Assembly (NCBI GenBank): GCA_963762565.1
Contig: CAVXLD010000001.1
Location: 591,612-655,611 of the forward strand
Length of the DNA stretch: 64,000 nt
Source of the DNA: an uncultured Verrucomicrobiae bacterium
GTDB lineage: Bacteria; Verrucomicrobiota; Verrucomicrobiia; Chthoniobacterales; JAFAMB01
Reading direction: 5' to 3'
The number at the start of each line of letters is the position of its first letter. Position 1 is the stretch's first letter. Position numbers and translations under genes: made by a program. A model generated the notes under the pieces. That model made no database searches. It was given only the letters and a program-made list of their open reading frames with translations, and was not told where the DNA came from. Below, piece by piece: positions 12,806 to 50,232 of the stretch.

Positions 12806-12822
12806 GGCAGGTTACATGCCAG
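12806..12822 (-). promoter_or_regulatory. Sigma54 (RpoN) -24/-12 promoter of permease array 1
   Basis: Minus strand CTGGCATGTAACCTGCC = GG-N10-GC, about 30 bp upstream of ATG 12776. Confidence 0.72.
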
Positions 12823-12986
12823 GTGGAGGGGGGAAGAGGTGATTGGTGATTGGTGATTGGTGGGAGCACCGCGTCAGGCCGAACTGTGGGTGGACGGTAA
12901 CTAGGGATCAGTTCGGGGCTGGTGGTCGCCGTATAGCGGTTTGAAGGCAGGTGCGTGCCGCGCGGATGTCGGTTGTGTGGACAACC

Positions 12987-13021
12987 GTCTCAAAATGAGA
13001 AACGGCGTCTCAACTTGAGAC
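12987..13021. promoter_or_regulatory. Tandem palindromic sites GTCTCA-N3-TGAGAC (putative enhancer-binding-protein UAS)
   Basis: GTCTCAAAATGAGAA (12987) and GTCTCAACTTGAGAC (13007), 20 bp apart, 165-200 bp upstream of the sigma54 site. Recurs at 24024 and 50197. Confidence 0.7.
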
Positions 13022-13049
13022 GGTTGCCGAGACAGCCGAGTAACGTAGT

Positions 13050-13664
13050 GTGCTGGTCATGCCAAGGTTTTTGCTGGGCATTGTCTTTCTGTTTATGGCC
13101 GTTAATTTCGATCCTGTTGTGCATGCCGAAGACAACCGTACAATCCCGAGTACTGGGGGAGAATATTTCGACCACCGCGTGGAAATTCCGGTACCGGCCT
13201 TTGCGCAGGATGATCCGCGGTGGAGCAATGTTCGGCTTGGGCCATCTACGGACACGCTGGGCGACCAGGGCTGCGCGGTGACCTCGGCCGCGATGGTCGT
13301 CGCTTTTTACGGGATCAAAACCGATCCGCAGCAGCTGAATAGTTTCCTTACAAAAGCAGGCGGACTCTCCGATGATGGACTTATTCAGTGGAGCCGGGTG
13401 CCGGCGATCGCGCCCTCCCATTTAGAATTGGCTTACAATGGCTACGCGGCGTACGACCTGATCGACTCGAATTTGCTGACAAAAAATCCCGTCATTGCGA
13501 TCATCCATCTGCGGGACGGCGCTTATCATTTCGTTGTGATCGTGGGTAAGGAAGGCCGCAACTACTTGATCCGTGATCCGGCGGCTCCTGTTTTTCGCCG
13601 ACCCTACCCGCTGTCCTACCTGACCGATCGGATTGACGGTATCTGCTTTTTTCGGACGATATAG
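13050..13664 (+). CDS. Secreted C39-like cysteine peptidase (Peptidase_C39_2-type)
   Basis: Signal-like N-terminus; QDDPRW, GCAVTSAAM (catalytic Cys), HFVVIVG, YLIRDP. Alternative start at ATG 13059. Confidence 0.82.
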   Translation: MLVMPRFLLGIVFLFMAVNFDPVVHAEDNRTIPSTGGEYFDHRVEIPVPAFAQDDPRWSNVRLGPSTDTLGDQGCAVTSAAMVVAFYGIKTDPQQLNSFLTKAGGLSDDGLIQWSRVPAIAPSHLELAYNGYAAYDLIDSNLLTKNPVIAIIHLRDGAYHFVVIVGKEGRNYLIRDPAAPVFRRPYPLSYLTDRIDGICFFRTI

Positions 13665-13678
13665 CGGGACTCGCCATA

Positions 13679-13785
13679 GGCGTTTGGCGTTTGGCGTTTG
13701 GCGTTTGCGTTTGGCGTTCGGCGTTCGGCGTTTGGCGTTTGGCGTTTGGCGTTCGGCGTCGGAAATAGCAAATCGCAAATAGCAG
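13679..13785. repeat. Heptamer tandem repeat (GGCGTTT/GGCGTTC) x ~11, followed by AAATAGC-type heptamers
   Basis: Directly visible just downstream of the C39 stop codon. Confidence 0.9.
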
Positions 13786-14080
13786 ATGCGTTCTGTACGC
13801 GATGAATGAATGGCGGTGCCGACACCTTTATGCATCGTCGCGCTCGGTAGGGGGCGATAAAAAAAGGGGTTTCGCCTGGAATAAAAGAGTTCCCAGGAAT
13901 CTCGGAACAACGACAGATCCTTCTGCGCAGGATTCGCGCAAAATGCATCACATCCGGCTAGCGACGCAGTTTGCAGGTAAAGCAATTGTAATCCTCGCCG
14001 ATACAATTTGACCTACCCCGCCGTCCAATGAACCAAGCAAATAGCACACAAAAAATGCTCCGCAACGCGGCGTTGTTACA

Positions 14081-15078: not shown

Positions 15079-15222
15079 CGCCGATCATTGGACGTGGCAG
15101 GATCGTGCCGATGACCGGATGCGTTCACCGGTTCAGTCCAGGGACTGCAGATCGATTCGTGTTGATTCGCTGGCCATTCGCAGTTGATGAATCAAGTCGT
15201 TTCGAATCTTTTATCAGTATCA

Positions 15223-17778: not shown

Positions 17779-17916
17779 AACGTCCACAGTTGAACCTGAA
17801 AGTGACGAGACCGGCCTGCCGTGGTTGCGCACCTGGAAAGCGTCTATCTTTTGGTGATCATCCACTTCGTTCTTTGGATCGTTTTGCTGGTCGCCTTGAC
17901 GGATTTCTTTTCATGA
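17775..17916 (+). CDS. Small single-TM membrane protein upstream of the symporter (frameshifted in this sequence)
   Basis: Frame-corrected reading ...ESDETGLPWLRTWK/VYLLVIIHFVLWIVLLVALTDFFS*. Its TGA overlaps the symporter ATG (ATGA). Confidence 0.5.
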
Positions 17917-20393: not shown

Positions 20394-21103
20394 ACTTGCG
20401 CCATCACTGGCCTTTGGCGCGCACCCCGACGACATCGAATTTGGCTGTGGCGGTATCGCCGCCGCCGAAACGCAGGCCAGACGCCAGGTGCATTTTGTCG
20501 TTTGTTCGCGCGGCGAATCTGGAACGCATGGCACGCCGAGACAACGGATGGCTGAAGCAAAAAAATCCGCCGCCCTGCTCGGTGCGACGATTGAATTCAT
20601 CAAATTGGCCGGTGATGCGCACCTTGAAATTCGCGTTTCCTACACCATTCGATTGGCAGAAATCTTCCGGCGTATCCGTCCGGAAGTTGTGCTGGCGCCG
20701 AGCCCCGTCGAAAACCAGCATCCCGATCATGCCCGTCTGGGAAAATTAGTGCGGGATGCCGCGAGACTCGCCCGTTTCGGTGGTTTGCAGGAGTTGCGCG
20801 GTCAACCACCCCATGCCATCAAACAATTATTTTTTTATGCCATCACCCCAGAAGCTGAGCCGGCCAATATTACTCCGGTGCTGATTGATGTTTCGGCGCC
20901 TGAAATTGTTGCTGCGTGGACCGCAGCCATGAAGGCGCATGCGTCGCAAATGCTCGACCCGCAATTACATCGATTTGCAACTCACCCGCGCCCGTTTGTT
21001 CGGTGCCCGCGCCGGAGTTGAGTATGCCATCGCTCTTTTTCCAAACGAGCCACTCGTCTTTGAGTCGCTAGCCCAGGCGGGACGAGGCGCGCGACGATTT
21101 TGA
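20368..21103 (+). CDS. bshB1: BshB1-like PIG-L deacetylase (frameshift near 20950)
   Basis: [34 protein letters not shown]; adjacent to bshA. Confidence 0.75.
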
Positions 21104-21104
21104 T

Positions 21105-24023: not shown

Positions 24024-24058
24024 GTCTCAAAATGAGAAAAGACGTCTCAACTTGGGAG
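24024..24058. promoter_or_regulatory. Tandem palindromic UAS-like sites
   Basis: GTCTCAAAATGAGAA (24024) and GTCTCAACTTGGGAG (24044); nearly identical to 12987-13021. Confidence 0.7.
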
Positions 24059-24161: not shown

Positions 24162-24178
24162 TTGGCAGACAACTTGCT
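24162..24178 (+). promoter_or_regulatory. Sigma54 -24/-12 promoter of the singleton permease
   Basis: TTGGCAGACAACTTGCT, close to consensus TGGCAC-N5-TTGC, 35 bp upstream of ATG 24214. Confidence 0.8.
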
Positions 24179-24213: not shown

Positions 24214-26682
24214 ATGCGAACCTTGTTTCACGATCTCCGCTTTGCTTTTCGTCAGCTCAGAAGGACGCCGGGGTTTGCAGTGACCGCGGTGCTGACGCTG
24301 GCGCTCGGCATCGGCGCCAACACGGCAATTTTCAGCCTGGTGAACGCCGTCCTGTTCAAACCGCTTCCAGTAACGGATCCCCAACAAATAACGACCCTGA
24401 CCTTCCGCCAGAACCACGGAGCCTTGCAGCGTCCTTTCTCTCTGCCGGAATTCGAAGCGATCCGCGCCCAAAGCCAGACCTCGTTCAGCGACGTCATGGC
24501 AGTCACGGCCGGCATAGACGGGTTTGCCGTCGAAGGGCGGAAGCCGGAACGCATCACGACAGCCTATGTCAGCGGTAATTTCTTCGATGCGCTTGGAGTG
24601 CCGCCGGCGGCAGGTCGGCTTTTTCTGCGGAGCGAAGGCGAGGTTCTCGATAGCGACCCGGTGGTGGTTCTTGACTACAACTTCTGGAAGAAGCGATTCA
24701 ACGGGGATCCAAATGTGGTTGGACGGCACGTCACGATAGATGGGCATCCCCTCTCGGTTATCGGGGTAGCGCCTGAGGGATTTCATGGCTTGCCCAGTGT
24801 AGCTCTTAGAGTCGCGGCGTATTTGCCGCTGTCCCAGTTGACCCTCGAGGGGACTCCCGCAGATGTTCTGAATAGCTGGCAGACTCGGAGCGTTCTTCTC
24901 TACGGACGGCTCCGGCCAGGATTCAGCCTGACCCAGGCGGACGCTGAGCTGAATGTCGTTGCTCGCAACCTGACGCGCGAACAACCGGATGATGAGCCCC
25001 AGCTGGAGTTGGCCGCTTATCCCGAGCAAAGTCTTCGCATCGGAACCAACCCGAGCGCGATCGTCCTGATATCCGCGATATTCCTTGGCCTGGCCGGTAT
25101 GATTCTACTGCTGGCCTGCGTGAACGTGGCTAACCTGGTGCTCGTGCGAGCGACTGTGCGTGAACGCGAGATGGCGATTCGCGCAGCGCTTGGCGCCAAG
25201 GGTTCCCGGCTCCTGCAACAGATGATCACAGAGAGCGTAACCTTAGCACTGATTGGCGGCGCGGTGGGCGTGGTTCTCGGTATGTGGGCCAGCACAGCGC
25301 TTGGTCACGTCAACCTGCATCTCGATGTTCCGTTTTCGCTATCGGTAGAATTCGATTGGCGAATCTTTCTTTACGCTCTGGGGATAGCGGTGCTGGCGGG
25401 GATTGTGGTCGGGATAGTGCCTGCCCTTCGAATGGCCAAGGCTAATGTGAATGCGGTTTTGCACACAGGCGGCCGCGGCACGACCGGAGGACGTCATTGG
25501 ATGCGGGACACTCTGATTATCCTGCAGATTACCGGTTCTCTGGTAATGCTGGTCGTGGCCGGCCTTTTCGTACGCAGTCTGGGAGCTCTCCAGGCAACAG
25601 ATTTCGGTTTTGAACCGGGTCACGTGCTCAATCTCTCCCTCGCTACCAATTTGATTGGGATCAACGATTCGCATACCCAAGATCTGACGGACAACATCCG
25701 GGCACGCCTCCACCAACTTCCTGAGGTAATCGCCGTAAGCCAGGCCACCGAGGTTCCCATGGGCTATTTCAATGGGAATACCGCGATGCTAACGATTGAT
25801 GGCGTCCCGGCTCCCGAAGATGCTCCGGCATTAACCGCAGGGTACAATGTGGTTTCACCCGAATACTTCGAAGTGATGGGGATCAGTCTACTGAGTGGGC
25901 GCAGCTTCACAGACGGAGACGATGCACGCAGCAGAGATGTAGCGGTGATCAGCAAGGGTATGGCCAAGAAGTACTGGCCGAATGAAGATCCCATCGGCCA
26001 TACCTTCCGCCTAGCGAGCGAGAAAGCGCGCGGGCTGGAAGTGGTAGGAATCGCACCCGACGTGGAAATTTCGTCTACCCGCGGCGACAAATCGCAGCCC
26101 TACTTTTACCTCCCGTATGCACAACACGTTAAAGGAAATGGGTTCCTTACCCTGCAGTTGAAAACGCGAGGGGACCCACTGGTGCTAGCGCCAACCGCCG
26201 AAAAAGCGATCCACGAGATTTCTCCCGAGCTTCCCCTGTTTCAAGTGCAAACCATGCATGAAGCGCTCTATTCAATGAATGGATTTTTGCCTTTTCAGTT
26301 GGGAGCTAGCCTGGCGGCAACCATGGGTGGTCTCGGCTTAACGCTTGCCGTGATTGGCCTTTATGGCCTGATCTCGTACGCGGTAAGCCAGCGAGTACAA
26401 GAGATCGGCGTACGTATGGCACTGGGCGCTACCCGGGGATCGGTGTTTGGCATGATCTACCGTCAATCGATGCGGATCGTGGCAGTTGGCCTTGGGATTG
26501 GTCTGGTGGTCGCACTGCTAGTTGCGCAAACCGTCAGCAGCTTAGTGATGGTCAGCCCATGGGACCCTGTGACATTCGCCACCGTAATCTCAGCCTTGAT
26601 TTTTGCCGCTCTCGCTTCCTGCTATCTGCCGGCACGCCGCGCCATGACCGTCGAACCGATGGTCGCGCTCCGCCAGGACTGA
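24214..26682 (+). CDS. ADOP-like duplicated ABC permease, canonical acidobacterial-type singleton
   Basis: [41 protein letters not shown] ... EPMVALRQD; clearly divergent from the array copies. Confidence 0.92.
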   Translation: MRTLFHDLRFAFRQLRRTPGFAVTAVLTLALGIGANTAIFSLVNAVLFKPLPVTDPQQITTLTFRQNHGALQRPFSLPEFEAIRAQSQTSFSDVMAVTAGIDGFAVEGRKPERITTAYVSGNFFDALGVPPAAGRLFLRSEGEVLDSDPVVVLDYNFWKKRFNGDPNVVGRHVTIDGHPLSVIGVAPEGFHGLPSVALRVAAYLPLSQLTLEGTPADVLNSWQTRSVLLYGRLRPGFSLTQADAELNVVARNLTREQPDDEPQLELAAYPEQSLRIGTNPSAIVLISAIFLGLAGMILLLACVNVANLVLVRATVREREMAIRAALGAKGSRLLQQMITESVTLALIGGAVGVVLGMWASTALGHVNLHLDVPFSLSVEFDWRIFLYALGIAVLAGIVVGIVPALRMAKANVNAVLHTGGRGTTGGRHWMRDTLIILQITGSLVMLVVAGLFVRSLGALQATDFGFEPGHVLNLSLATNLIGINDSHTQDLTDNIRARLHQLPEVIAVSQATEVPMGYFNGNTAMLTIDGVPAPEDAPALTAGYNVVSPEYFEVMGISLLSGRSFTDGDDARSRDVAVISKGMAKKYWPNEDPIGHTFRLASEKARGLEVVGIAPDVEISSTRGDKSQPYFYLPYAQHVKGNGFLTLQLKTRGDPLVLAPTAEKAIHEISPELPLFQVQTMHEALYSMNGFLPFQLGASLAATMGGLGLTLAVIGLYGLISYAVSQRVQEIGVRMALGATRGSVFGMIYRQSMRIVAVGLGIGLVVALLVAQTVSSLVMVSPWDPVTFATVISALIFAALASCYLPARRAMTVEPMVALRQD

Positions 26683-36491: not shown

Positions 36492-38918
36492 TTATTCGCG
36501 AAGCGCGATCACCGGGTTAATTCTGATGGCGCGTACGGTGGGAATTAGACAGGCTAAAACAGCGGCTAGCGTAAGCGCGGCGATAACGAACGCGATGGTC
36601 GCCGGATCATAACTAGTTATCCCGTAGAGCAAGCCCGATAGGGATTGACCCAGAACCAGGGCTGACACGATTCCCAACGTTAAACCGACAAAAACGATCT
36701 TCATCCCCTGCCAGAACACGATCTGGACAACATCGATGATTTGCGCTCCAACCGCGACCCGGATCCCGATCTCCCGTGTACGCAGGCTGACTGAACGCGC
36801 TAGTATTGCATACACACCGACCAGCGAAAGAGTCAGAGCAAACATCGAGAATAAGGTCACCACTAGCAGGGTTACCTGACGAGTCTCGAACGATTTGGAG
36901 ATGAGATCATCCAGCGTACCTGAAGCAGACAACGGCACATCCGGGTCCAGCGATGCCACCGCCTTTTGAATCGCGGGCAGCAGCGAAATAGCATTACCGG
37001 CGTTGCGAACGACTAAGGTGCAGTCATTTTGCTCCTGTCGATAAGGATGCGGTTGCCCCAGTGGAAAATAAGTCTGAAACAAGATGTATTGCCGTGCCGG
37101 ATTCAGCTGATAGACCGTCGGAACCACTCCTACGATGGTGTAATTCGTACGGGTCAGCCCGAGGGTTTCACCAAAATCATGGATCTGTTTCCCGATGGGG
37201 TTTTGTCCGGGGAAATAGGTGTTGGCCAACGTTTGGTTAACAATCACAACTTTATTCCGGCCCAGCTGATCCTGAGCATCAAATGCGCGCCCTTGTAATA
37301 GCGGGATTTGGAGTGCCCGAAAGTAATCGGGCGAAATAACCTCTAAAGTAAATCTCGGTTTATGGCCGCTGTCAGGCTCGGGCTGGCCGACAACCGCAAA
37401 CGGTCCCGCAAAGCCCTCGTTATCTTCCAGTGAGAAAGGTAACACATCGGCGGTACCGACCGCCGTCACCCCGGGTAGTTTAAGGACTTTTTCAATAATG
37501 ACAGCGAAGAAGGTTTTCCAGTCCGCTAGGGTTCGGTATTTAGACTCCGGAAGATAGATGTCGGTTATTAATAAATTGTTAGGATTGAATCCTAATGGAA
37601 CCTGGCGCAGCGCTTGAAGACTTCGAGCCAACAAGATACAGCCAAACAGTAAAATCGATGCGATCGCCACTTGACACACAATCAGTACAAACTGGGTTCT
37701 TTGCCGCTGCGGGCTACGCGTGCCGCCGAATGTTCCTTTAGTTCGGAGCGCGGAAGTGAGATCAACCCTGGATTGGGCAAAGGCCGGAAACGAGCCGGCC
37801 AGGAGCGAGACGAAAACGGTGGTTCCAAGTACCAGCACAAAGGCGAGGTTGTCGAACTCGAGCTCTTCAAACCGGGGAATACCGGACGGGGCAAGGATCC
37901 TTATCAAACTAACGCCCCAGTGCCCCAGAATGAAGCCGGCAGCTCCGCCGGCCAATGAAAGGACCATCGTCTCACCCATTAGTTGCAGAACGAGACGGGT
38001 TTTGCTGGCTCCGAGAGACGCCCGGATCATCATTTCTTTCTGACGCTCCAGACTTCTCGCGAGATGTAGCCCGGCGACATTGGCGCAGGCAATCACTAAA
38101 AGCAGAGCAACCGACCCTCCAATCAGCCAAAGTGTAGAAGGAAAATCGCCCACCACACTGTCCAGCAAGGGAGCAACCCGGACCGTGATGGTCTTATGGT
38201 TATCGGGAAACCGGGCAGCCAAGCTCTTGGCGGTGATTTCAAGATCCGCCTGCGCCTGTCGGAGAGTCACCCCCTCGGCCAACCTTCCGATGCACCAGCA
38301 GCCATGGTTTGCGCGATCGGTTCGAAGCTCGTCCAGCTCCGGCAACAGGTTAAACGGCAGATAAACGCTCGCAATTTCGTCGGACCGTTGACGGCATACA
38401 CCGATTATTTCGTAGCTAACTTGGTTAAGCTGCACCTTGGCGCCTACAACTGTGGGATCAGCCCGGAAACGTTCGCGCCAGAAACGTTCACCCAGAATGA
38501 CGACCGTTGCTGTGTCCGCCCGGTCTTCACCGGGCCCGAACGGCCGCCCCGCCAGCAAAGGTCTACCTAGTGTTTGGAAATAATTTGCGGTAACAAAGCT
38601 TCCAGTGAGATGCACTGGATCACCTTGGCCAGTGAGAACCAGATCATTATTGTAACTAACCGCTAAGTTTTGGAACGAATGTTGATTGGCACAAAAATCC
38701 AGGTAGTCCGGATAACACATCCGAAACGTCTGTAAATTCCGTAGCGGCTGAAAGACCTCCACTAGTTGATCCGCCCGCGGATAAGGCAACGGCTTTAGTA
38801 AGACCGACTCAATCAAACTAAAGATTGCCGTGTTAGCGCCGATCCCGAGGGCGAGGATTGCTATCGCGGTGATGGTGAAGGCGGGGGACTTGAGGAGGAG
38901 GCGGAGCGTGTGGCGCAT
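36492..38918 (-). CDS. ADOP-like duplicated ABC permease (array 2, last gene)
   Basis: ORF 36492..38999; likely start ATG 38918 ([14 protein letters not shown]); ends NPVIALRE. Confidence 0.9.
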   Translation of the reverse strand: MRHTLRLLLKSPAFTITAIAILALGIGANTAIFSLIESVLLKPLPYPRADQLVEVFQPLRNLQTFRMCYPDYLDFCANQHSFQNLAVSYNNDLVLTGQGDPVHLTGSFVTANYFQTLGRPLLAGRPFGPGEDRADTATVVILGERFWRERFRADPTVVGAKVQLNQVSYEIIGVCRQRSDEIASVYLPFNLLPELDELRTDRANHGCWCIGRLAEGVTLRQAQADLEITAKSLAARFPDNHKTITVRVAPLLDSVVGDFPSTLWLIGGSVALLLVIACANVAGLHLARSLERQKEMMIRASLGASKTRLVLQLMGETMVLSLAGGAAGFILGHWGVSLIRILAPSGIPRFEELEFDNLAFVLVLGTTVFVSLLAGSFPAFAQSRVDLTSALRTKGTFGGTRSPQRQRTQFVLIVCQVAIASILLFGCILLARSLQALRQVPLGFNPNNLLITDIYLPESKYRTLADWKTFFAVIIEKVLKLPGVTAVGTADVLPFSLEDNEGFAGPFAVVGQPEPDSGHKPRFTLEVISPDYFRALQIPLLQGRAFDAQDQLGRNKVVIVNQTLANTYFPGQNPIGKQIHDFGETLGLTRTNYTIVGVVPTVYQLNPARQYILFQTYFPLGQPHPYRQEQNDCTLVVRNAGNAISLLPAIQKAVASLDPDVPLSASGTLDDLISKSFETRQVTLLVVTLFSMFALTLSLVGVYAILARSVSLRTREIGIRVAVGAQIIDVVQIVFWQGMKIVFVGLTLGIVSALVLGQSLSGLLYGITSYDPATIAFVIAALTLAAVLACLIPTVRAIRINPVIALRE

Positions 38919-39125
38919 GGTGGTGAAAGGTGATTGGTGATCGGTGAGTCGTGATTGGTAGGGCGAGGCTCCCGACTCGAGTCTAGGACGTCTTCGCAAG
39001 GCGTCATAGTGCTTTTCTTGAAATGATTAGTTGCGCCCAAGACTGCCGAGCCGGTTCCAACGCGTGCAATCTCCTAGCGTTATTTGTCAGTTGTCATTTG
39101 TCATGCGCTTCGCCTTGGCTATTGG

Positions 39126-41550
39126 TCATTCGCGTAGCGCCGTGATCGGGTTGACGCGCGCGGCTCGAAGCGCGGGGATAAGGCATGCCACTATGCCGGA
39201 CAGGCCTAAAACCAGGATCGTTACGCCGAGCGTCATCGGATCAAGTGGACTGACTCCGTAAAGTAGGTTTGCGATGGCACGTGCAAAACCTGCTGCACCA
39301 ACTATACCAATTATCATGCCAAGGCCGATGAGCTTGACGCCGCGGAGAACCACCCAGTTTAAATGTTCATCTGATCAGCGCCCAGCGCCATGCGGACACC
39401 GATCTCTTTCGTTTGCCGAGCAACATAACCGGCTAGAAGGGCATAAATGCCGACTACCGATAGCGATAAGGCCACAGCGGAAAAGCTGCCGGCAACCGTT
39501 AACTCCATCTTCCGGGTTACGAATTTACCTGCCAGCGTTTGGTCGAATGTCGTTAGCTGACCAATAGGGACATCTGGGTCGACCAAAGCCATTGCTTTTT
39601 TAAGCTGAGGTAGCAGGCGACTGGGATCGGCCTTAGAGCGCAAAAGCAGTTGTTCGGCGTACGCCGGGTCCTGCGTGTACGGGTAGTATTCCTGAAATGG
39701 GGTATCACTATAGTCAGCCGTGTTCTGTCGCACGTGCGGTACAACTCCGACGATGGTAAAGATTGTGACCCCTCTCCCATCCGCTGTAGGAGAGCTAATT
39801 TGCTTTCCCAACGGGTCCATACCGGGGAAATAGCGATCAACCAGAGCCTGATCGACGATGATCACTTTCTGGCGATCCGACTTATCGTTCGCGTTGAAGT
39901 CCCGTCCTCGTAAGATCGGTATACCCATGGTCTGGAAATAACCCGGCGAAATCCGATAGGTATTGAATTTAGCGGTATGGGCGGGATCTGGTTCTGTTTG
40001 TCCGGTGACCCAGAACGGCGAAGACCAGCCATTACTACTTAAGAACGGAGGTCTGTCGTTCAACGCTGCGTCAGTGATCTCAGGAATTTGCCGCGTCTCC
40101 TCCAGCAGTCTGTCGAAGAAAAGGCGCATCCGACCTAGATCTGCGGTATAGTTGCGGTTGGTTAGTATAATCGGGACTGAGATAAGCCGGTTTAGATCGA
40201 ACCCCGTGGGAGTATTCGCAACTGCTTGAAAACTGGAGATGAGCAGCCCTACTCCAAAGAGCAGGACAAATGCTAGCGCAACTTGGGCGACCACCAACCA
40301 GGAATGCATTTGTTGCTGCGGCTTAGAAGCTCCACCACTATGGCCCTTTGGCAGCGATGCCAGGTTGATGCTAGACAGGTTCCACGCCGGCAATAATCCC
40401 GCCAGCACCGCAACCAAAACCGTGAGGCCAAGTACAAAGAGGAGCGCCGTCACGACCTAGATGAGCCTCTTGAAAACGATACAGATCTTGCGGACTTAAG
40501 CTTTTTATTACGCTCAAGGCCCACGAGCCTAGAACCATTCCGAAGAGCGCGCCGGCCGTTGTGAGAACGGTCGTTTCTATGAGCACCTCACTAATAAGCC
40601 GGCGACGAGATGCGCCGACCGAAGCTTTGATGACCATCTCGCGTCGCCGCTCAAGTGATCTAGTAAACAGGAGGCAGCCCACGTTTACGCTCGATATCGC
40701 AAGCAGACCGACCGCAGCTGCAGCGAGCAGCCAAATAGTCGAATGATAGTCACTCCGTCATTGCATCCAACAACGGAACAATCCGAAGTACGTATCCCTG
40801 CTCCGTTACAGGGTATCGACTGGCCACTTGCGAGTAGATACGACCCAAGTCTGCCTCTGCTTGAGCCGCATTGATTCCGTCTTTTAACCTACCAAAACAA
40901 TCTATCCAGTGGGAGCTTCGATCCCACAGGTTAAGATTCAAAGTAGTTACTAAATTGTTAATGGGCGCATAGGCATCGATTGGAGGAGGTCCCCAATCAT
41001 CGACTTGAGATTGCGAAACGCCGATGATCCGAAAGCTCTGACCGCTAAGCACGATACTTTTGCCAATAACGCCGGGATCCGAGTTAAAACGCTTTCGCCA
41101 AAATTGTTCGCTCAGCACAATCAATAACGGACCGTTCGGAATATCCTCTTCTTCCGTGAACGATCTCCCAAGAATCAAAGGACGGCCCGTGACGCGAAAT
41201 ATTCCGGGTGACGCAAAGTCCACGTTGACGCGCGTGGAATAATCCCCTTCGCGCCAATCAAGCCAGTCGCCTCCATCACTAACGCACAAAGTATCGAAAC
41301 TCCGTTGATCAGCAGCGAGGTCAATAAAATCAGGATAGTCGAAATTCGTTCGGCCACTGTTGGGAGCCCGCAGCACCACTTTGACCAATCGATTCGGGTC
41401 GGGATATGGCAAAGGCTTGAGCAGAACTCCATCGATCAGACTGAAAACCGCGGTATTAGCGCCAATACCGAAGGCCAGGATTACGATCGCGGTGATGGTG
41501 AACGCTGGGGACTTAAGTAGGATGCGGAGCGTGTGGCGAAGCCCGAGCAT
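39126..41550 (-). CDS. ADOP-like permease split into four fragments by three frameshifts (sequencing error or pseudogene)
   Basis: ORFs 40750..41550, 40371..40682, 39359..40453 and 39126..39353 are colinear parts of one ~808 aa permease. Confidence 0.78.
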
Positions 41551-41600
41551 GGTGAAAGGTGAGAAGTGAAAGGTGAAAGGTGAAGGAGCTAGGAGCTACC

Positions 41601-41786
41601 CGTGGAGCGCGCCTCGCTTGCGAGGCCGTGGTAAGCAGGGCTGAAGATTGGTCAGGGGCATCGTCGAGCTGCGCTCTGGGGTATGAAAAGGCAGACGTTC
41701 GTAACATAGAGTGATGAGCGTAATAAGGTGATGCGTTACTAGGTCCTTTGTTCACCACGGCCTCGCAAGCGAGGCAGCGCTCCACG
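41601..41786. mobile_element. ~185-bp REPIN/MITE-like element with long terminal inverted repeats (copy 1)
   Basis: cgtggagcgcgcctcgcttgcgaggccgtggt ... accacggcctcgcaagcgaggcagcgctccacg; near-identical copy at 44295-44478. Confidence 0.75.
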
Positions 41787-41799
41787 TTTGCGCTATTGG

Positions 41800-44256
41800 T
41801 CATTCGCGAAGCGCAGTGATCGGGTTAATGCGCACGGCTCGTAGTGCAGGCAACAGGCAGGCCAAGACTGTGGCTATTCCAAGAACGAACACCGCCAGGG
41901 AAAGCGCCAGGGGATCACTAGCGGAGACATTATAAAGGGCGCTCTCGAAGAATCGGACCAGGAGCAAAGCGGACATTAGTCCGATCGCTAACCCGAGTCC
42001 CGCTAACTTCAGGCCTCTCAGGATCACGAGCCTTAGGATATTGGACGATTGAGCTCCAAGAGCGATACGAACCCCTAGCTCACGTCTCCGTTGGCTGACA
42101 GAATAGGCGAGTACACCGTACAGACCCACTGCAGAGAGGCAGAGCGCAGCGCCGGAGATAATGCTGACTAAGAAAGCGCTGAATCGCCTGGTGGCTGACC
42201 GTCCAGCAATCAAGTCATCGAATTTTTGGATTCGATCCGCCGGAACATCCGGATCGATGGAAGCCACAATCTTTTGAATAGCGGGAGCCAGGGTGGCCGG
42301 CTCTCGATCGGTACGTAAAAGCAGGAATGCACGATACAGATTGTCACGTTGGCTATACGGGAAATAAGCTTGATAGGGTGCCAAGCTGTGATCAGGGGCA
42401 TTGTGTCTGACTTGTCCGACCACACCAACAATCGTCCACGTCTTCTGGTCGTCACGCGTCGCCCAGAGATCTTCTATTTGCTTTCCGATCGGATCTCCGC
42501 CTGGGAAAAACCGTTGTGCTAGAGCTACATCAACGATGACAACATGTTGGGTGTCTGCCCGATCGTCGGCGTCAAAATCGCGCCCGGCAACGATCGGAAT
42601 CTGCATGGTTTTGAAATAGTCCGGAGAAATATCTTGGGAGCAGAGACGTTGGCTCTTTACCGGGCTCCGTAACTGGCTGACCTGGAATGTGAAACGGTGC
42701 GTTCAAGTCACCGAACGTCCATTCAAAGGGTTGTTCTTGATTCATGGCGGCATCAGTCACTCCCGGAAGTTCCTTCGCCTTCTCGAGAACGGCAGCAAAC
42801 AGACGCCGGATTTGAGGCATATCGTTATATTTCTTACCGGTAGGATTGATGTTCGCGCTAACGAGATGATCCGGCGTTGAATCCAAGGGGGATTTCCTGG
42901 AAAACCTGGAAGCTACGGACTAACAACCCGGCTCCGATCAATAGTACACAAGCGGCCGCTACTTGACCGGTCACCAGGATAGATTGAGTGCGTTGCCGGT
43001 GCAGCCCGGTGGTGCCACCCCGATTACCTTCTTCTCGGAGGACCGTTTCCAAATTGATCTTCGAAAGACTGAGTCCAGGAAGTAATCCCGGACAACAAGG
43101 TGACAAAGGCGGTGATTAAGAAAATGAAAATTAGAGATGCGCTATCTAAATGGACGTCTTGAAATCGGTTCAGGTAATCCGGGCTTAACCACTTAATCAA
43201 TCCAATCGACCAAAACGCAATAATACAGCCGGTGACACCGCCTAACATCGAAAGGAATGCGGTCTCCAATAACAGTTTTCTAACCAGACGAAAACGCGAG
43301 GCGCCTAAGGTCGAACGAATTGTCATTTCTTTGCGGCGTTCCAATCCGCGAGCAAAAATCAAGTTCGCCACATTGGCGCAAGAAATGAGCAAGAGGCATC
43401 CAACAGCCCCTCCTAGTAACCAGACCGTCGCTGAATAAGTGGCGGCTGTGCTGTCAAAGAGTGAAGCCACCCGAATAATGTAGTTCTTGTCGGCGTCAGG
43501 ATACCGGGCATCGAGGTTGCTTTGAATGATGTTCAAGTCGGCGTTGGTCTGTGCCGGAGTTGCAGCCTGCTGCAAGCGTCCGAAACAGAGCAGACCGTGC
43601 GACGCCCGTTTGTTCGTCCATGGACCTCCAAAGTACTCCGATACATGGATTGGCACATACACAGCGTCGTCCGAAGGAGTGCTGACATCTTCGACCTGTC
43701 TTGGGCAAACCCCAACTACCTGGAAGCTTTCCCCGCTTAGAATGATGTTTTGACCGATGACATTTGCATCGGCATTAAAGTGATCCCGCCAGAGCGCCTC
43801 GCTGAGCACAGCGACCATGGGGCCGCCGGTTTTATCTTCGGCCTCAGTAAATGGGCGGCCTAATACGAACGGCAAATTCGTGACCTTGAACAGGCTGGGC
43901 GACGCATAGATCGCGGTCAGCCGTTGCGGAAGCTGACGAGTCCCCAAATCTAGATAATCCCAGTACTCCACCGCGATGTTACTCAAGGTCTTCTGATCAT
44001 CGCGAAGATCCAGATAATCCGGGTAACTTACCCCACCCCAATCCGACCGGTCCAACACAGAGTTGCTTGTTCTCGATTCAAAGATCTGCATCAGCCGATC
44101 CGCTTGAGGAAACGGTAATGGATTTAGCAACACGGTACTAATCAGGCTGAAAACGGCGGTGTTCGTCCCGATACCGAAGCCGAGGATTAGTACCGCGGTG
44201 ATGGTGAAGCCGGGCGACTTTAGCAGGAGGCGGAGGGTGTGGCGCAGGGGGGACAC
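41800..44256 (-). CDS. ADOP-like permease split into four fragments by three frameshifts
   Basis: ORFs 43024..44256, 42858..43106, 42572..42886 and 41800..42606 are colinear. Confidence 0.78.
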
Positions 44257-44294
44257 GGGGTGATTAGTGATTAGTGATTGGTGATCGGTGATCG

Positions 44295-44478
44295 GTGGAG
44301 CGCGCCTCGCTTGCGAGGCCGTGGTAAGCAGGGCTGATGGTAGGTCAGGGGCATCTTGGAGCTGCGCTCTGGGTTATGAAAGGGCAGACGTTCCTAACAT
44401 AGGGCCTTGAGCGTAATAAGGTATGCATTACTAGGTCCTTTGTTCACCACGGCCTCGCAAGCGAGGCAGCGCTCCACG
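44295..44478. mobile_element. REPIN/MITE-like element (copy 2)
   Basis: Same terminal inverted repeats and homologous core as 41601-41786. Confidence 0.75.
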
Positions 44479-44491
44479 TTTGCGCTATTGC

Positions 44492-46951
44492 TCATTCGCG
44501 TAGCGCCGTGATTGGGTTAACTCGGGTAGCGCGCAAGGCTGGTACGAGACAGGCGATCGCCGCGGCTACGGCTAGAATCAGGACGGCGGCCGCCAGCGAT
44601 ATCGGATCACCTCCGGAAACGCCGTATAAAGTGGTCTCCATAAAGCGGACAAGCAGTAACGCCGTTATCATTCCAATCGTCAGGCCGATCATCACTAAGT
44701 TTAGTCCCTGCCGGACGACCAATCTGAGGATGTTCGACGACTGTGCTCCTAAAGCGATACGCACACCGATCTCTCGCCGGCGCTGAGCAACGAAATAGGC
44801 GAGCACTGCGTATAGCCCGACCGCGGATAAAAAGAGAGCAACTCCGGAGAAGATAGTAGCCAATAGTGCCGTCAGCCTTCCGAGGGCGAACTTTTCCGTT
44901 ATATGATCGTCGAAGCGCATGACTTGCGTAACCGGCACATCCGGATCAAGCTCAGCCACAATTCGTCGGACCTCGGGAATTAGAGCGAGCGGATCGCCCG
45001 AAGTACGCAACAGCAAGAACTCCGTTCCAAGGACTGTCCTTTCATTATAGGGAAAGTAAGCCTGAAATAGCGGCATAGGGGTTTGAGGCCCGTTGTGGCG
45101 CGAATTCTGTACTACACCGACAATCGTCCAAGTGTCCTTTTTATCCCAAGCTCCTAACCATTGTATTTGTTTCCCGATGGGATTCTGGTTCGGGAAAAAA
45201 TGTTCCGCTAAAGCTCTATCTACGATAACGTCCCTCTCGCTATCCGCGCGATCCGCAGAATTAAAGTCCCGACCTTGCAACAGCGGTATTTGCATGGTCT
45301 CGAAATAGCCGGGCGAGATATTCTGAGCAATGAAGGTTGGTTCGTGACCGGGTTCAGGTGGAGGCACTCCAATCACCCGAAACGGAATAGTGAAGTCACC
45401 AACGGTCCATTCAAAAGGTACTTGATCATTCATCGCGGCCGCGGTGACTCCGGGTAAGTGGCGCGCCTTCTCCAAAACGGCGTCAAATAATCGCTGGCAA
45501 GGTGCCGTATCGATATATTTCCGGCTGGTCGGGCTTATGTTCGCGCTCAGCAAATGATGCGGGTTATAACCGAGAGGCAGATCCTGGGTGGCTTTGAAAC
45601 TGCGGATAAATAGTCCGGAGCCGACCAAAAGCACGCAAGCTAACGCGACCTGGCCCACCACCAGGAATGATTGGATTCGCTGTTGTTGTGGTCCCGCGGT
45701 GCCCGCGGTGCCGGACCGGCCGCCTTCATCTCGAAGAGCTAAACCCAATTTCAAATCGGAAAGGTTAAACGCCGGCGGCAGACCGGCAAGGAGCGCTACC
45801 AGCGTCGTAATCCCTAGTACAAACAACAGCGCGACCGGGTTGAACTCAACCTTTTGGAACGCGTAAAGGTAGACTGGGCTACCCCATTTGATGAAATCGA
45901 TCGACCAATGCGCAATCAACACCCCAAGCGCTCCGCCGAGTAAAGAAACCAAGATTATTTCGAGAAGGATTCGAGCGATCAGCCTCAACCGCGATGCTCC
46001 CAACGTCGCTCTGATCATGGTTTCCTTGCGACGTTCGAGTGCTCGAGCGAAAAATAGGTTCGCCACATTGGCGCTCGAGACGAGCAAGAGGCACCCTACC
46101 CCAGCCGCCAACGACCAAACAAAATTCGAGTAGTCACCCACCATCACGTCCGAAAGTTGAACAATGCGGGTGGTGTTGTTCCTGTCAGTGTCCGGGTAAA
46201 GAAAGTCCAGGTTATTCTGAATCGACGTCAGATCTGCCCCGGCCTGGGCGAGGCTGATACCTTCCTTTAATCGACCCGTACAGGCAGTGCCCTGCAGGGC
46301 ACGGTCTTGCAGTGTTCCGCCCCACAACTCGGTAACATGGATCGGGACATACAACAGATCATCAGGCGGGGTACTAACTTCTTCCACTTGTCTGGGGCAA
46401 ACTCCAATCACCTGAAAACTTTCCCCACTTAACAGCAAATTCTTCCCGATAATATTAGGATCAGCGTTGAACCGGTGTCTCCATAATTGTTCACTCAAAA
46501 CCACGACCAATGGACCGCCGGTTTTATCCTCTTCTTCAGTAAATGGCCGGCCAAGAACAAACGGTAAACCAGTTACCTTAAATAAACTCGGCGTTGTGCA
46601 AACTCCGCTAAGGCGCTCGGGATATCTTTGACCTTGACCACCCAAATCCCAAAAAGTCCAGAATGACGCAGAGAGGCTTTCGAAGGTGTGCTGGCTTCTG
46701 CAAAAATCGAGGTAGTCGGGAAAGTCCACGAATTGGTCCGTGCCATCGGTCGTCGTTCCTTTTGACCGTGACTGATAAATCCTGACTAGCCGGTCGGTCT
46801 TTGGATAAGGAGTTACGTTAAGAATGACGGCTTCAATCAAACTAAAGACCGCAGTGTTTGCGCCGATGCCAAACCCGAGGATTAGGACCGCGGTGATGGT
46901 GAAGCCCGGCGACTTTAGCAGTAGGCGGATTGTCTGGCGGAGATGGCGCAC
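44492..46951 (-). CDS. ADOP-like duplicated ABC permease (array 2)
   Basis: 819 aa, GTG start, standard motifs, ends NPITALRE. Confidence 0.92.
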   Translation of the reverse strand: MRHLRQTIRLLLKSPGFTITAVLILGFGIGANTAVFSLIEAVILNVTPYPKTDRLVRIYQSRSKGTTTDGTDQFVDFPDYLDFCRSQHTFESLSASFWTFWDLGGQGQRYPERLSGVCTTPSLFKVTGLPFVLGRPFTEEEDKTGGPLVVVLSEQLWRHRFNADPNIIGKNLLLSGESFQVIGVCPRQVEEVSTPPDDLLYVPIHVTELWGGTLQDRALQGTACTGRLKEGISLAQAGADLTSIQNNLDFLYPDTDRNNTTRIVQLSDVMVGDYSNFVWSLAAGVGCLLLVSSANVANLFFARALERRKETMIRATLGASRLRLIARILLEIILVSLLGGALGVLIAHWSIDFIKWGSPVYLYAFQKVEFNPVALLFVLGITTLVALLAGLPPAFNLSDLKLGLALRDEGGRSGTAGTAGPQQQRIQSFLVVGQVALACVLLVGSGLFIRSFKATQDLPLGYNPHHLLSANISPTSRKYIDTAPCQRLFDAVLEKARHLPGVTAAAMNDQVPFEWTVGDFTIPFRVIGVPPPEPGHEPTFIAQNISPGYFETMQIPLLQGRDFNSADRADSERDVIVDRALAEHFFPNQNPIGKQIQWLGAWDKKDTWTIVGVVQNSRHNGPQTPMPLFQAYFPYNERTVLGTEFLLLRTSGDPLALIPEVRRIVAELDPDVPVTQVMRFDDHITEKFALGRLTALLATIFSGVALFLSAVGLYAVLAYFVAQRRREIGVRIALGAQSSNILRLVVRQGLNLVMIGLTIGMITALLLVRFMETTLYGVSGGDPISLAAAVLILAVAAAIACLVPALRATRVNPITALRE

Positions 46952-47310
46952 GGGGGGAGAGAGGTGAAAAGTGAAAGGTGAGAGGTGAAAGGTGAGAGGC
47001 TAGTAAGCAGTAATCAGTAGGTCAGTAATCAGTGTAGGAGCTAGAATCTAAGAGTTAGGAGTATGTTTTTCTTTGCGATCTTTGCGTTCTTCCGCCTTCG
47101 CCAAGCCTACGGCGCGACAGGTTTTGCAGCTATCTGTCATTTGGGATTTGTTCCGGCGGCTGCCGGATCATGCGCTTCGCCTTGGCTATCGGCTATTGGC
47201 TATTGGTCATTCGCGTAGCGTGTCATTCGCGTAGCGTGATCGCGAGTTTCGCGTAGCGTGTCATGCGCGTAGCGTGTCATGCGCGTAGCGCCTTATTCGC
47301 GTAGCGCGGT
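46952..47310. repeat. Modular spacer with tandem ~16-bp amplification of the permease stop-codon box
   Basis: Heptamer blocks, then tcattcgcgtagcgtg / tcatgcgcgtagcgtg repeated about 5 times next to the true gene end ttattcgcgtagcg. Confidence 0.85.
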
Positions 47311-49734
47311 GATCGGGTTAATCCGGGCCGCGCGTAGCGCCGGTAATAAACAGGCTAAGGTCCCAGCCAGCCCAAGAACAAGAATGGCGAGCCCCAGTGT
47401 AATCGGATCTGCTGGGGAGACTCCATAGAGTAGTCCTGCGATCAAGGGCGCTGCCACCAGCGCGGCGCCGATTCCTATCACCAGCCCGACGCAGACGATC
47501 TTGAGTCCTTGTTCGGTGATTAGTCTTAGGATATTGCGGGATTGCGCTCCCAATGCGACACGGATGCCAATCTCGCGTGTCCGCTGGCCGACGGCATACG
47601 CTAGAATACCATAGAGCCCCGTTGCCGATAGGAAAAGCGCGGCGCCGGAAAACAAAGTTACCAGCAGCATGCATAATTTTCGAGTCGCGAAGTTTTTGGC
47701 AATGACATCGTCGTAAGTGCTCACTTCGTAGACCGGCACCCCTGGATCGATCGAACTGACTACTTTGCGAACCGCCGGAACCAAGACGCCTGGATCAAGG
47801 TCCGAACGCAAGATCAGGTACTCAGAATCAAAATTCCATTGGTTATAGGGGAAATAGGCTTGGAATGCGGTCTCCGTCTGACCGGGGCTTTTGTAACGAA
47901 GATGCGGCACGACCCCGACGATGGTGCAATTCTGCGTGCCCTGCATTTGCTGAACGGTGATGTCCTTGCCGAGAGGATTTTGACCCGGGAAATAATGTTC
48001 CGCCAGAGCAGCGTCGACAATAACGACGTCCGATTTATTCACGGTATCTTGCGAATTAAAATCGCGCCCCTGAAGAAGGGGAACCTGCAGCGTGCGAAAG
48101 TAATCCGAAGAAACCATCTGCCAAGCCAGAACCGGCTGGCGACCCGGGCCAGGGTCTGGTTGCCCGTCGATGGTGAAACGGAACAGGAGCTCCGTATTGT
48201 CTTTCAGCGGCGGAAAGTCATTTAGCGCCGCGTCGGTCACCCCGGGTAGCTGGCGGACCTTCGTGCTTACCGCATCCCAGAAGGCCCGGGTCCGGGCACC
48301 GTCGTTCTCGTATTTAGCGCTGGTAATAGAAATCCCTGCGGTAAGCAGATGATGCGGGTTGAAACCGAGCGGGATATTTTGGGCGGCTTGGAAGCTGCGG
48401 ACCAGCAATCCCGCTCCAATCAATAGGACACAGGCCAGCGCCACTTGTGCGGTCACCAGAGCGGATTGGGTGCGATGGCGCTGCGGACCGCTAGTCCCCG
48501 CGCGGCCACCTTCATCTTTTAGCCCGGGAGCAAGGCTAGCCCGAGAAAGATTCAAAGCTGGGAGGAGCCCTGAAAGCACTGATGTGAGCAGGATTACCAC
48601 AAATACAAACAGCAACGCGTTCAGATCGACGGTGAGCTCCTGAAAACGATATAGACCCGGCGGACTCAGCTTTTTTATAGTCTCAGCAGAACCAAGAGCA
48701 ATCGCCAGGCCGAGTATGCTGCCGAAGAACGTTAGAACCATTGTTTCCAGAAGAAGCTGAGCAATCAGCTGCCGCCGACTGGCGCCGAGGGCAGTTCGCA
48801 CCATCATCTCCCGGCGACGGTGCAAACCGCGCGCAAAAAGAAGATTGGCGACGTTCGCGCTGGAAATTAACAAGAGACAACCAACGGCAACTCCTAAAAG
48901 CCACGTGGTGGCTGCATAATCGTTTACCATGCTATCGAGCAGCGGGATTATGCGAAGTCCATAGCCTCGATTAGTACCCGGGTACCGGGCTGACAGGTTG
49001 GTATGGATGGTCTCGAGGTCCGCTTGCGCCTGCGCGACACTCACTCCAGGCTTCAATCGGCCAAGGCAAAGAAAAAAATGGATGTCCCGAAGCGCCATGG
49101 CATCACCGCGATTGGTAGGGAACAATCCGAAAGGGGCAAGAGTATTGGCCGGCACGTAAACATCGGTTGCAGGCGGGCCCCAGTCGTTTACTTGAGCAGG
49201 AACCACCCCGATCACCTGAAAACTGTGTTCACTGAGGGTGATATTCTTACCAATGATCTCCGGATCAGAATGAAACCGGGTCTTCCAACAACGATCGCTT
49301 AGGACCGCGAGCAGAGGCCCGTTGGGAATATCCTCCTGATCAGTGAACACACGACCGAGAACAGCCGGGAGGCCGGTCACCTTAAAAATGGTGGGAGAAA
49401 CAAAACCAATCTGGAGGTGTGCTGGCTCCTTATCGCTGCTCAGATCAAGACTGTACCGGCCCACCACAGCCAATGCTGCGAACGTATGCTGAGCAGCGCT
49501 CATATCGACGTAGTCAGGATAATCAACGGCCATGAACGGGTTGTTCTGGTAAGGCTCACAAACCCGGACCAGCCGATCAGGCTCCGGATACGGCAGCGGC
49601 TTAAGGATAACCGCATCGATCAAGCTGAAGATGGCGGTGTTAGTCCCGATGCCGAAGCCCAGGATGAGGACGGCTATGATGGTGAAACCTGGCGATTTTA
49701 GCAGGACGCGGATGTTTTGGCGGAGATGGCGCAC
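47293..49734 (-). CDS. ADOP-like duplicated ABC permease (array 2, first intact gene)
   Basis: 813 aa, GTG start, ends NPITALRE. Confidence 0.92.
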
Positions 49735-49913
49735 GGGGGAGTAAGAGGTGAAAAGTGAAAGGTTAGAGGTGAAAGGTTAGTAATCAGTAGGTCAGTGATC
49801 AGTGCGGGAGCTAGGAGTCTGTCTTTGTTTGTGATCTTTGTGTTCTTTTGCGGCTATCTGTCATTTGGGATTTGTCATCTGTCATGCGCTTCGCCTTGGC
49901 TATCGGCTATTGA

Positions 49914-50019
49914 TCATGCGCGTAGCGGCCCCTGGGTCCGGTTGGCCGGTGATGGTAAATCCCGGCGATTTGAGCAATAGCCGGAGCGTGTAACGCAAGG
50001 ACGGCAGTAGGCGATCCAT
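49914..50019 (-). pseudogene. Collapsed ADOP permease relic at the head of array 2
   Basis: Translates [30 protein letters not shown], then runs into the gene-end box ccgctacgcgcatga. Confidence 0.8.
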
Positions 50020-50050
50020 GGTTTTGCGAGGGTTGTCCTGTTATTAGGGC

Positions 50051-50066
50051 GCAGCTTACATGCCAA
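50051..50066 (-). promoter_or_regulatory. Sigma54 -24/-12 promoter of permease array 2
   Basis: TTGGCATGTAAGCTGC (GG-N10-GC); one mismatch in the 15-nt core versus the array 1 promoter; ~31 bp upstream of ATG 50019. Confidence 0.72.
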
Positions 50067-50196
50067 CTCGATACCGGCAGACATCGGCGCCGGTAGAGAT
50101 GCTAAAAAATTATATCTCTACCGATAAACTCTTGTGCTAGAGAACTAGTCGCGTGCAGAGCAGTACTCGGGACCAAAAGCCACCGGGGACTCGAAT

Positions 50197-50232
50197 GTCC
50201 CAAAATGAGAGCAATTTGTCTCATTTTGAGAC
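50197..50232. promoter_or_regulatory. Tandem palindromic UAS-like sites
   Basis: GTCCCAAAATGAGAG (50197) and GTCTCATTTTGAGAC (50218), 21 bp apart. Confidence 0.7.

Follow-up and report, generated by a model that had tools for sequence, protein, structure and literature searches.

Acidobacterial duplicated orphan permeases (ADOPs) are a large family of duplicated MacB-like permeases, abundant among the Acidobacteriota and Verrucomicrobiota of soils and usually described beside PadR regulators. Promoters of the NtrC type, which are served by sigma-54 and a bacterial enhancer-binding protein (bEBP), customarily have their enhancers at distances such as 100-247 nt upstream, and the loop with which a canonical bEBP contacts sigma-54 has the sequence GAFTGA. 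The BceRS-BceAB systems of Firmicutes are antimicrobial-peptide sensing and detoxification modules with an OmpR-type regulator and a BceB of 10 transmembrane (TM) helices. The DNA in question here is a stretch of 64,000 nucleotides (the window) from an uncultured Verrucomicrobiae bacterium (assembly GCA_963762565.1, contig CAVXLD010000001.1, positions 591,612 to 655,611), whose ADOP genes comprise two arrays, each on one strand (940-12776 and 36492-49734), and a singleton (24214-26682). Neither a MacB-type ATPase nor an adaptor (membrane fusion protein, MFP) gene was found within the window. An earlier note on this DNA had proposed that the three loci share a sigma-54 promoter and a tandem palindromic enhancer, and that this motif could be followed to the genes for ATPase, MFP and regulator that seemed to be missing. 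The motif did lead to them: in the same genome, another pair of palindromes lies between the genes of a histidine kinase and an NtrC-type regulator and a HlyD-ADOP-ATPase operon (the core locus). Judged from sequence, the three window loci would belong to a regulon of 11 sigma-54 promoters under the NtrC-family regulator of the core locus, a reading that is given a probability of roughly 0.75.

The system resembles promoters of the NtrC/glnAp2 and ZraR/AtoC types in having a REC-AAA+-Fis-type HTH regulator, a partner histidine kinase and rpoN, and in that two palindromes, separated by about two helical turns, precede GG-N10-GC by 100-250 nt. It differs from them in its site, GTCYCA-N3-TGRGAC, in a regulator that reaches no equivalog cut-off, and in a regulon made up of ADOP permeases, an MFP, ATPase, a beta-lactamase and a Ser/Thr kinase. 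With BceRS-BceAB it shares a kinase without an extracellular sensor domain that adjoins an FtsX/MacB-type ABC (ATP-binding cassette) system, and by analogy induction and sensing via the transporter may be shared as well. However, it is not a member of the Bce family because regulator and permease are of different classes, namely an NtrC-type sigma-54-dependent regulator and an 8-TM duplicated MacB-like ADOP with a HlyD adaptor, and it has 11 promoters and >20 permease paralogues in place of one operon. MacAB-TolC likewise combines a HlyD-family adaptor, a MacB_PCD/FtsX-type permease and a MacB/LolD/DarD-like ATPase, but here the ATPase is a polypeptide of its own and the permease one chain with an internal duplication. 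At the 11 promoters no outer-membrane factor gene turned up, though no search, there or genome-wide, was aimed at such genes. As for the ADOP family itself, a passage of PMC3914696 on Psychroflexus torquis reports clustered ADOP paralogues as abundant proteins of unknown role. Similar clusters occur here, where 19 of 24 ADOP genes or pseudogenes (our own count from 44 TIGR03434 matches) exceed the curated cut-off of the family model TIGR03434 (622.3 bits), but in the genome of a soil member of Verrucomicrobiota and with no PadR alongside. "Acidobacterial" in the name is historical in this case, and the predicted wiring of the ADOPs of this genome, which would share their control with one adaptor and two ATPases, means that they would not be orphans in the strict sense. 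In a full-text search of the literature, mentions of ADOPs were descriptive, and nothing was found on ADOP regulation or sigma-54 control.

The pairs and the -24/-12 elements of the window are as follows, with scores taken from the position weight matrix (PWM) introduced below.

12987-13001 and 13007-13021, minus strand: tandem putative enhancer (upstream activating sequence, UAS) of array 1, two 15-bp palindromes 20 bp apart start to start, PWM pair score 43.4
12987..13021, minus strand: the same enhancer, 200 nt upstream of the -24 element of array 1
12807..12821, minus strand: sigma-54 type -24/-12 element of array 1, TGGCAT-N5-CTGC, GC 31 nt before the ATG at 12776
24024-24038 and 24044-24058, plus strand: tandem putative enhancer of the singleton ADOP, 20 bp apart, score 38.6
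24024..24058, plus strand: the same enhancer, 139 nt upstream of the -24 element of the singleton
24163..24177, plus strand: sigma-54 type -24/-12 element of the singleton, TGGCAG-N5-TTGC, GC 37 nt before the ATG at 24214
50197-50211 and 50218-50232, minus strand: tandem putative enhancer of array 2, 21 bp apart, score 41.9
50197..50232, minus strand: the same enhancer, 167 nt upstream of the -24 element of array 2
50051..50065, minus strand: sigma-54 type -24/-12 element of array 2, TGGCAT-N5-CTGC

The three tandem pairs thus lie at 12987/13007, 24024/24044 and 50197/50218, spaced 20, 20 and 21 bp, where the earlier note had placed them. They are 139-200 nt upstream of the -24 element at all three loci, and the claimed GG-N10-GC was found before each first ATG, with the GC of the -12 element 31, 37 and 32 nt ahead of it. 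Read on the gene strand, locus 1 has GTCTCAAGTTGAGAC-N5-TTCTCATTTTGAGAC and, after 165 nt, TGGCATGTAACCTGC, followed by the ATG 31 nt past the GC. Locus 2 has GTCTCAAAATGAGAA-N5-GTCTCAACTTGGGAG and then TGGCAGACAACTTGC, and locus 3 has GTCTCAAAATGAGAC-N6-CTCTCATTTTGGGAC and then TGGCATGTAAGCTGC. The palindrome GTCTCA-N3-TGAGAC, with up to two mismatches, matches eight times in the window against 1.92 expected, a number reached in none of 100 shuffles, and six of the eight matches make up the three pairs. The two lone palindromes (22301-22315 and 22941-22955, with 1 and 2 mismatches) stand between convergent genes, far from any -24/-12 element, and are probably chance matches or decayed sites. 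Exact TGGCA-N7-TGC occurs five times (2.22 expected). Three of these matches are the claimed promoters, at 12821-12807 on the minus strand, 24163-24177 on the plus strand and 50065-50051 on the minus strand; the others are promoter 1 read on the opposite strand and a match at 7792 on the plus strand inside an opposite-strand ADOP gene. Internal array genes have neither an exact -24/-12 match nor a palindrome pair, as had been stated. At locus 3, promoter and enhancer were confirmed, but the supposed first ATG (50019) opens merely a 39-codon open reading frame (ORF), and the first intact ADOP of array 2 begins at 49734. A block of heptamer-type repeats at 12840-12870 lies between enhancer and promoter of locus 1 and lengthens that spacing.

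The genome, 6.1 Mb in 15 contigs, encodes 14 full-length bEBPs, and the presence of rpoN, on which the proposal depended, was verified (C1:213172-214530; TIGR02395, 422.1 bits against a cut-off of 277.35). The closest named relatives of this RpoN are from Verrucomicrobiota metagenome-assembled genomes (MAGs; 94%, 86% and 83% identity), and those of Chthoniobacterales are ~70-80% identical. An enhancer PWM was built from 16 sites read by coordinate, and the genome was scanned for pairs 19-22 bp apart, a check that the earlier note had asked for. The scan returned 11 tandem pairs with scores of 31.3-43.4, the next match scoring 19.5. At a threshold of 16 bits there are 14 matches in the genome versus 0-3 in each of five shuffled genomes, and three of the 11 pairs are outside the PWM training set. 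All are spaced 20 or 21 bp and share the consensus GTCYCA-N3-TGRGAC, that is, two 15-bp palindromes two helical turns apart. Every pair has a correctly oriented GG-N10-GC 100-247 nt downstream. TGGCA-N7-TGC is exact at 10 of these promoters and the eleventh reads TGGCGT-N5-GTGC, the chance expectation of the exact element being 0.005 per 300 nt. The spacers between enhancer and promoter measure 65-66 nt (four loci), 77-78 nt (two loci), 104, 131, 165, 192 and 211 nt, and no clear helical phasing was seen among the 11 loci beyond the short spacer classes. Eight pairs head ADOP clusters, and of the 24 ADOP genes or pseudogenes all but two, at C12:509253 and C5:123591, belong to these clusters, which thus comprise 22. 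The remaining three pairs, which are those outside the training set and the most informative, stand before a small ORF with a class A beta-lactamase gene, before a Ser/Thr kinase gene, and at the core locus.

At the core locus, the pair at C1:112731 lies ~150 nt past the stop of a 463-aa histidine kinase (HATPase_c, C1:112912-114300). By eye, the kinase sequence has two TM helices at ~22-41 and 49-69 separated by a ~7-residue loop, with no periplasmic domain. The adjoining response regulator of 500 aa (G000:C1:114652-116151) is built as REC-Sigma54_activat-HTH_8 (PF00072, 78 bits; PF00158, 222 bits; PF02954, 53 bits). Its best NCBIfam match is TIGR02915, with 388 bits against a cut-off of 502.6, and the models for the PEP-CTERM response regulator, AtoC, ZraR and NtrC all stay below their cut-offs; by these scores it is an NtrC-family member and not a named orthologue. 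As for autoregulation, no site scoring >=12 was found upstream of the regulator gene (C1:116151-116431). The core promoter, TGGCACGGCAAATGC, is 113 nt downstream of the pair, and the operon after it runs in the order 80-aa single-TM protein, HlyD/RND-MFP adaptor, ADOP, 91-aa ORF, ABC ATPase, four ADOPs and S51 peptidase. The adaptor (TIGR01730, 115 bits) has no paralogue at E<=1e-15 in the genome. The ATPase is a separate 249-aa protein of MacB/LolD/DarD-like type (DarD 255 bits, MacB nucleotide-binding domain 232 bits, these matches being partial or below cut-off). The next enhancer and promoter, at C1:94298, precede two ADOP genes and one for a second ATPase, which shares 45% identity with that of the core. 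Between the core operon and the C1:94298 enhancer, a ribbon-helix-helix/PIN toxin-antitoxin pair is encoded on the opposite strand (L034:8338-9188, plus strand, or G000:C1:94337-95187).

The pair at C12:430285 is followed by the promoter TGGCACGCGACGTGC, the gene of a 53-aa small membrane protein and that of the class A beta-lactamase (333 bits with NF033103, whose cut-off is 200), and the pair at C12:514471 by TGGCACGGAAGCTGC and the gene of a 418-aa Ser/Thr kinase. The 53-aa protein (L003 ~6020-6181, minus strand) is a paralogue of the 80-aa protein of the core operon (L002:6370-6612, minus strand, or G000:C1:112369-112611), so that a small single-TM protein is the first gene after the sigma-54 promoter of both the pump operon and the beta-lactamase unit. 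This protein has no Pfam or NCBIfam match and is kept in congeners at 52-80% identity; in 7 of 12 distant loci examined, the first gene encodes a ~100-aa protein with this layout. Immediately upstream of the beta-lactamase enhancer (L003:6735-9600, minus strand, or G000:C12:430734-433599) are genes for a LolA-like protein, a single FtsX/MacB_PCD permease and an ABC ATPase, the last again 45% identical to the core ATPase.

Conservation was examined in 30 related genomes, which were searched with 21-bp and 20-bp forms of the pattern at <=3 mismatches. The tandem pair was found in all five congeners (2, 11, 7, 9 and 10 sites) and in five of 13 other genomes of the family (G007, 1; G012, 3; G015, 3; G016, 2; and a weak match in G018 that the PWM did not confirm), and in none of 12 genomes from other families of the order; the reversed pattern, as a control, gave 3 matches overall. 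The PWM confirmed 46 pairs in nine of the relatives, and in 41 of them a -24/-12 element follows within 300 nt (33 exact, 8 with one mismatch). These 41 promoters drive ADOP genes (26), a small ORF with HlyD or HlyD alone (6), the beta-lactamase unit (4), a Ser/Thr kinase (1) and unidentified genes (4). The targets with a small ORF and beta-lactamase occur once in each of G002, G003, G004 and G005. Thus, both the architecture and the membership of the regulon are conserved. Orthologues of the kinase and regulator are present in 10 of the 31 genomes, and nine of the 10 carry the pair. The order kinase-pair-promoter-HlyD is seen in the genome of the window and in G002, G003, G005, G007 and G015; in G004 the contig ends too early after the kinase to read the gene order.

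From its proximity to a pair, its co-occurrence with the sites, synteny, the distant loci and covariation, the core regulator is likely the reader of the sites. It lies 2.3 kb from a pair, and the next nearest of the 14 full-length bEBPs is 34 kb away. The distant loci are 80 kinase loci, mostly from Verrucomicrobiota and Acidobacteriota MAGs, with kinases of 47-59% identity. The regulator adjoins the kinase in 75 of the 80, and 12 have an exact -24/-12 element and HlyD downstream. The GTCTCA-type tandem pair is found at none of the 80; instead, all 12 have GTCCC-N6-GGGAC (<=2 mismatches; background 0.065 per 200 nt) in the interval from the kinase stop to the promoter, and a second TCCCA half-site usually comes after it. 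This N6-type site starts 112-115 nt from TGGCA in eight of the 12, and the corresponding distance in the genome of the window is 112-113. The recognition helix covaries with the site: it reads RSTFYRRL in 9/9 regulators from genomes with the N5-type site, and RSAFYRRL in 10/10 regulators beside N6-type sites as well as in G023 and in a paralogue on contig C4. From this comparison, the site appears to have shifted from GTCCC-N6-GGGAC to GTCTC-N5-GAGAC along with one Ala-to-Thr change in the recognition helix.

In the mechanism proposed for the regulon, dimers of the one REC-AAA+-HTH_8 response regulator (C1:114652-116151) would bind the palindromes, and the adjoining histidine kinase would phosphorylate it. 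The kinase probably senses within the membrane or through the pump itself, since it has two TM helices joined by so short a loop. The activated regulator would oligomerise, loop to the sigma-54 holoenzyme and open all 11 promoters together. By this, the core operon would be induced with its small membrane protein, HlyD-type adaptor, ADOP, ABC ATPase, four further ADOPs and S51 peptidase. The other units induced with it would be eight more ADOP operons (three lie in the window, and one operon ends in the second ATPase), the small ORF with the class A beta-lactamase, and the Ser/Thr kinase. The likely role is inducible defence against cell-envelope or antibiotic stress, because of the kinase topology, the type of pump and the co-regulated beta-lactamase, whose co-induction suggests a response to envelope-active compounds.

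Several observations weigh against control of all these promoters by the core regulator. Its sigma-54 contact loop is GAFTDA, which retains F and T and departs from the canonical loop at the fifth residue. Taken alone, the -24/-12 pattern is no commoner across the genome than in shuffles (212 matches versus 197-221), and therefore each promoter call rests on the association with an enhancer, which is itself overwhelming. Five of the 46 pairs in relatives lack a -24/-12 element at <=1 mismatch. G001 and G012 have no HlyD within 1.5 kb of the kinase, the pump operon of G001 being elsewhere. G023, of another family, keeps kinase, regulator, -24/-12 element and HlyD with no PWM-matching site; its site, read by eye, is GTCCCATTCCCGGGAC. 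The covariation of helix and site may rest on a single evolutionary event, and the array gaps of 126-340 nt and a ~730-nt gap in the core operon could conceal promoters missed by simple scans. In addition, the genome encodes a 55%-identical paralogue of the regulator (C4:30326-31702), whose HTH differs at few residues. In G016, two pairs with exact -24/-12 elements stand before non-ADOP genes, no kinase orthologue is present at E<=1e-30, and the best regulator match belongs to the group of this 55% paralogue. Therefore, a related activator is evidently able to use similar sites. These last points would fit a situation in which the sites are real sigma-54 enhancers read by the C4 paralogue or by one of the other 12 bEBPs, and the core pair of kinase and regulator controls its own operon or nothing here. 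The HTH of the C4 paralogue is close to that of the core regulator (LGLSRSAFYRRLQKY vs LGLSRSTFYRRLQQY). However, the C4 paralogue has neither kinase, HlyD nor ADOP neighbours (they are a SpoIIE-GAF phosphatase, a methyltransferase, a UvrA-like protein and a TPR protein) and no nearby site, its RSAF helix is of the kind that pairs with N6-type sites in 10/10 cases, and paralogue-type regulators occur in G006, G008, G010, G011 and G014, where no pair was found. Among the 14 bEBPs a site adjoins the core regulator alone, and reading by another bEBP is thus considered unlikely. An N6-type tandem is present at C7:446827-446864 (L115:2828-2865), with an exact TGGCAC-N5-TTGC at L115:2953, before 41- and 87-aa ORFs of no family; it would suit the RSAF-type C4 paralogue and is plausibly its target.

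It is still less probable that the palindromes bind a factor other than a bEBP, such as a repressor or an architectural protein, with the true enhancers elsewhere or unneeded. Many HTH dimers do typically have 15-bp palindromes as their sites, but sites 100-247 nt upstream of the -24 element are too far for promoter occlusion and at the usual position of enhancers. A related palindrome also accompanies the regulator gene in 12/12 distant loci at ~113 nt. When the 11 regions are aligned, the positions kept in >=9 of them are confined to the two palindromes and TGGCA/TGC, and nothing else is conserved between site and promoter. The usual description of ADOP genes next to PadR regulators, mentioned in the earlier note, stands as background but does not carry over to this genome: PF03551 has one match above cut-off (C6:39639) and one weak match (C10), neither near an ADOP gene, and PadR control of the ADOPs was rejected as the sole PadR gene lies on another contig. 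Very improbable, finally, is the idea that the shared elements are functionless duplication relics or a dispersed repeat copied with the ADOP genes. The genes are paralogous, and spacer identity reaches its maximum of 0.58 between C3:858k and C3:956k and 0.47 between the core and beta-lactamase loci; the median among the 11 copies is 0.24, however, so flanks and spacers have diverged while the motifs are retained. Moreover, internal array genes, likewise duplicates, lack the elements, non-ADOP genes (beta-lactamase, kinase, HlyD) carry them, and the layout is kept across genera, with -24/-12 at 41/46 pairs. The dispersed repeat, against which the earlier note had cautioned, was rejected on the diverged spacers and these 41 relative pairs.

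A wider and more tentative proposal can be made, which is doubtful as a whole: that the 20-odd ADOP paralogues are interchangeable membrane modules of one pump system and that the regulator lineage switched its DNA specificity. The unique HlyD adaptor and one or two co-induced MacB-type ATPases may serve whichever ADOP paralogues are made, a kinase sensing inside the membrane would turn on all of them at once, and the whole set, with the beta-lactamase, may be a combinatorial efflux or extraction defence against envelope-active soil compounds. The shift in specificity, if true, would insulate the regulon from the paralogue that is still on the older site.

The ADOP genes of the window are arranged as follows.

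940..12776, minus strand: ADOP array 1, five genes at 10338-12776, 7744-10170, 5173-7617, 3546-4976 and 940-3369
24214..26682, plus strand: singleton ADOP, TIGR03434, 853.8 bits against the cut-off of 622.3
47293-49734, 44492-46951 and 36492-38999, minus strand: intact genes of ADOP array 2, whose span is 36492..49734
41800-44256 and 39359-41550, minus strand: broken genes of ADOP array 2, each in pieces
49900..50019, minus strand: remnant ORF of 39 codons, made of 24 ADOP N-terminal codons, an apparent ADOP 3' end and the usual spacer

Eight of these genes are full-length matches to TIGR03434 (797-878 bits), one ADOP has an in-frame internal deletion and two are in pieces. The deletion is in the fourth gene of array 1 (3546-4976), where positions 5-94 of the hidden Markov model are joined to 421-802. 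In the 39-codon remnant an ADOP start is joined to an apparent ADOP 3' end, and therefore the original head gene of locus 3 has undergone an internal deletion. The arrays are probably long polycistronic units, because their genes are on the same strand with a promoter only at the head, no other sigma-54 element and no terminator-like sites in the gaps. Terminator-like sites were absent from every array gap, and sigma-70-like promoters and terminators in the arrays were counted at or below shuffle levels, with none in gaps, in scans that are crude and no proof of co-transcription. The gaps of array 1, 126-196 nt long, are composed of heptamer-type repeats. Spacers in general are patchworks of such short tandem repeats (CCAATAG, CAATCAC, CTCCTAG, CTGATTA, CCTTTCA, GGCGTTT and similar), which come in the same order in several gaps. 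Blocks of them lie in the window gaps 3370-3545, 4977-5172, 10171-10337, 44257-44491, 46952-47292 and 49735-49900, and also at L002:6840-6900 and L003:6400-6700.

Other genes of the window include a Ser/Thr kinase of 964 aa (32472-35366, minus strand), which follows ADOP array 2 on that array's strand at a distance of 1.1 kb. A cluster at 15184-22242 resembles one for bacillithiol synthesis, with BshA (322 bits, above cut-off), two BshB/Mca-like deacetylases and a sodium/solute symporter, and a DcsG-like ATP-grasp enzyme (22961-23827, minus strand) adjoins it. A 512-aa protein (56854-58392, plus strand) with a TIR-like stretch is matched weakly by the retron-TIR and Thoeris ThcB4 models. No NCBIfam match was found for two large ORFs of 807 and 649 aa (58722-61145 and 62030-63979, both minus strand). 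Among public sequencing runs, the entries listed as containing the stretch in whole or in part are seven of soil-metagenome DNA, from 4 studies, and none of RNA.

The switch itself is a conventional two-component bEBP/sigma-54 design, and the novelty is in the wiring of the ADOP family to it. New are the enhancer sequence, an 11-promoter regulon that takes in 22 of 24 ADOPs together with a beta-lactamase and a kinase, the conservation of this regulon, and the covariation of helix and site. A family without known function, partner or regulator thereby gains a DNA site, a candidate sensor and activator, an adaptor and two ATPases, and the co-regulated class A beta-lactamase and Ser/Thr kinase point the ADOPs towards envelope or antibiotic stress. 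ADOP function becomes testable by reporters and binding assays despite the uncultured host, and the paired change of recognition helix and site offers a compact natural case for the evolution of bEBP specificity.

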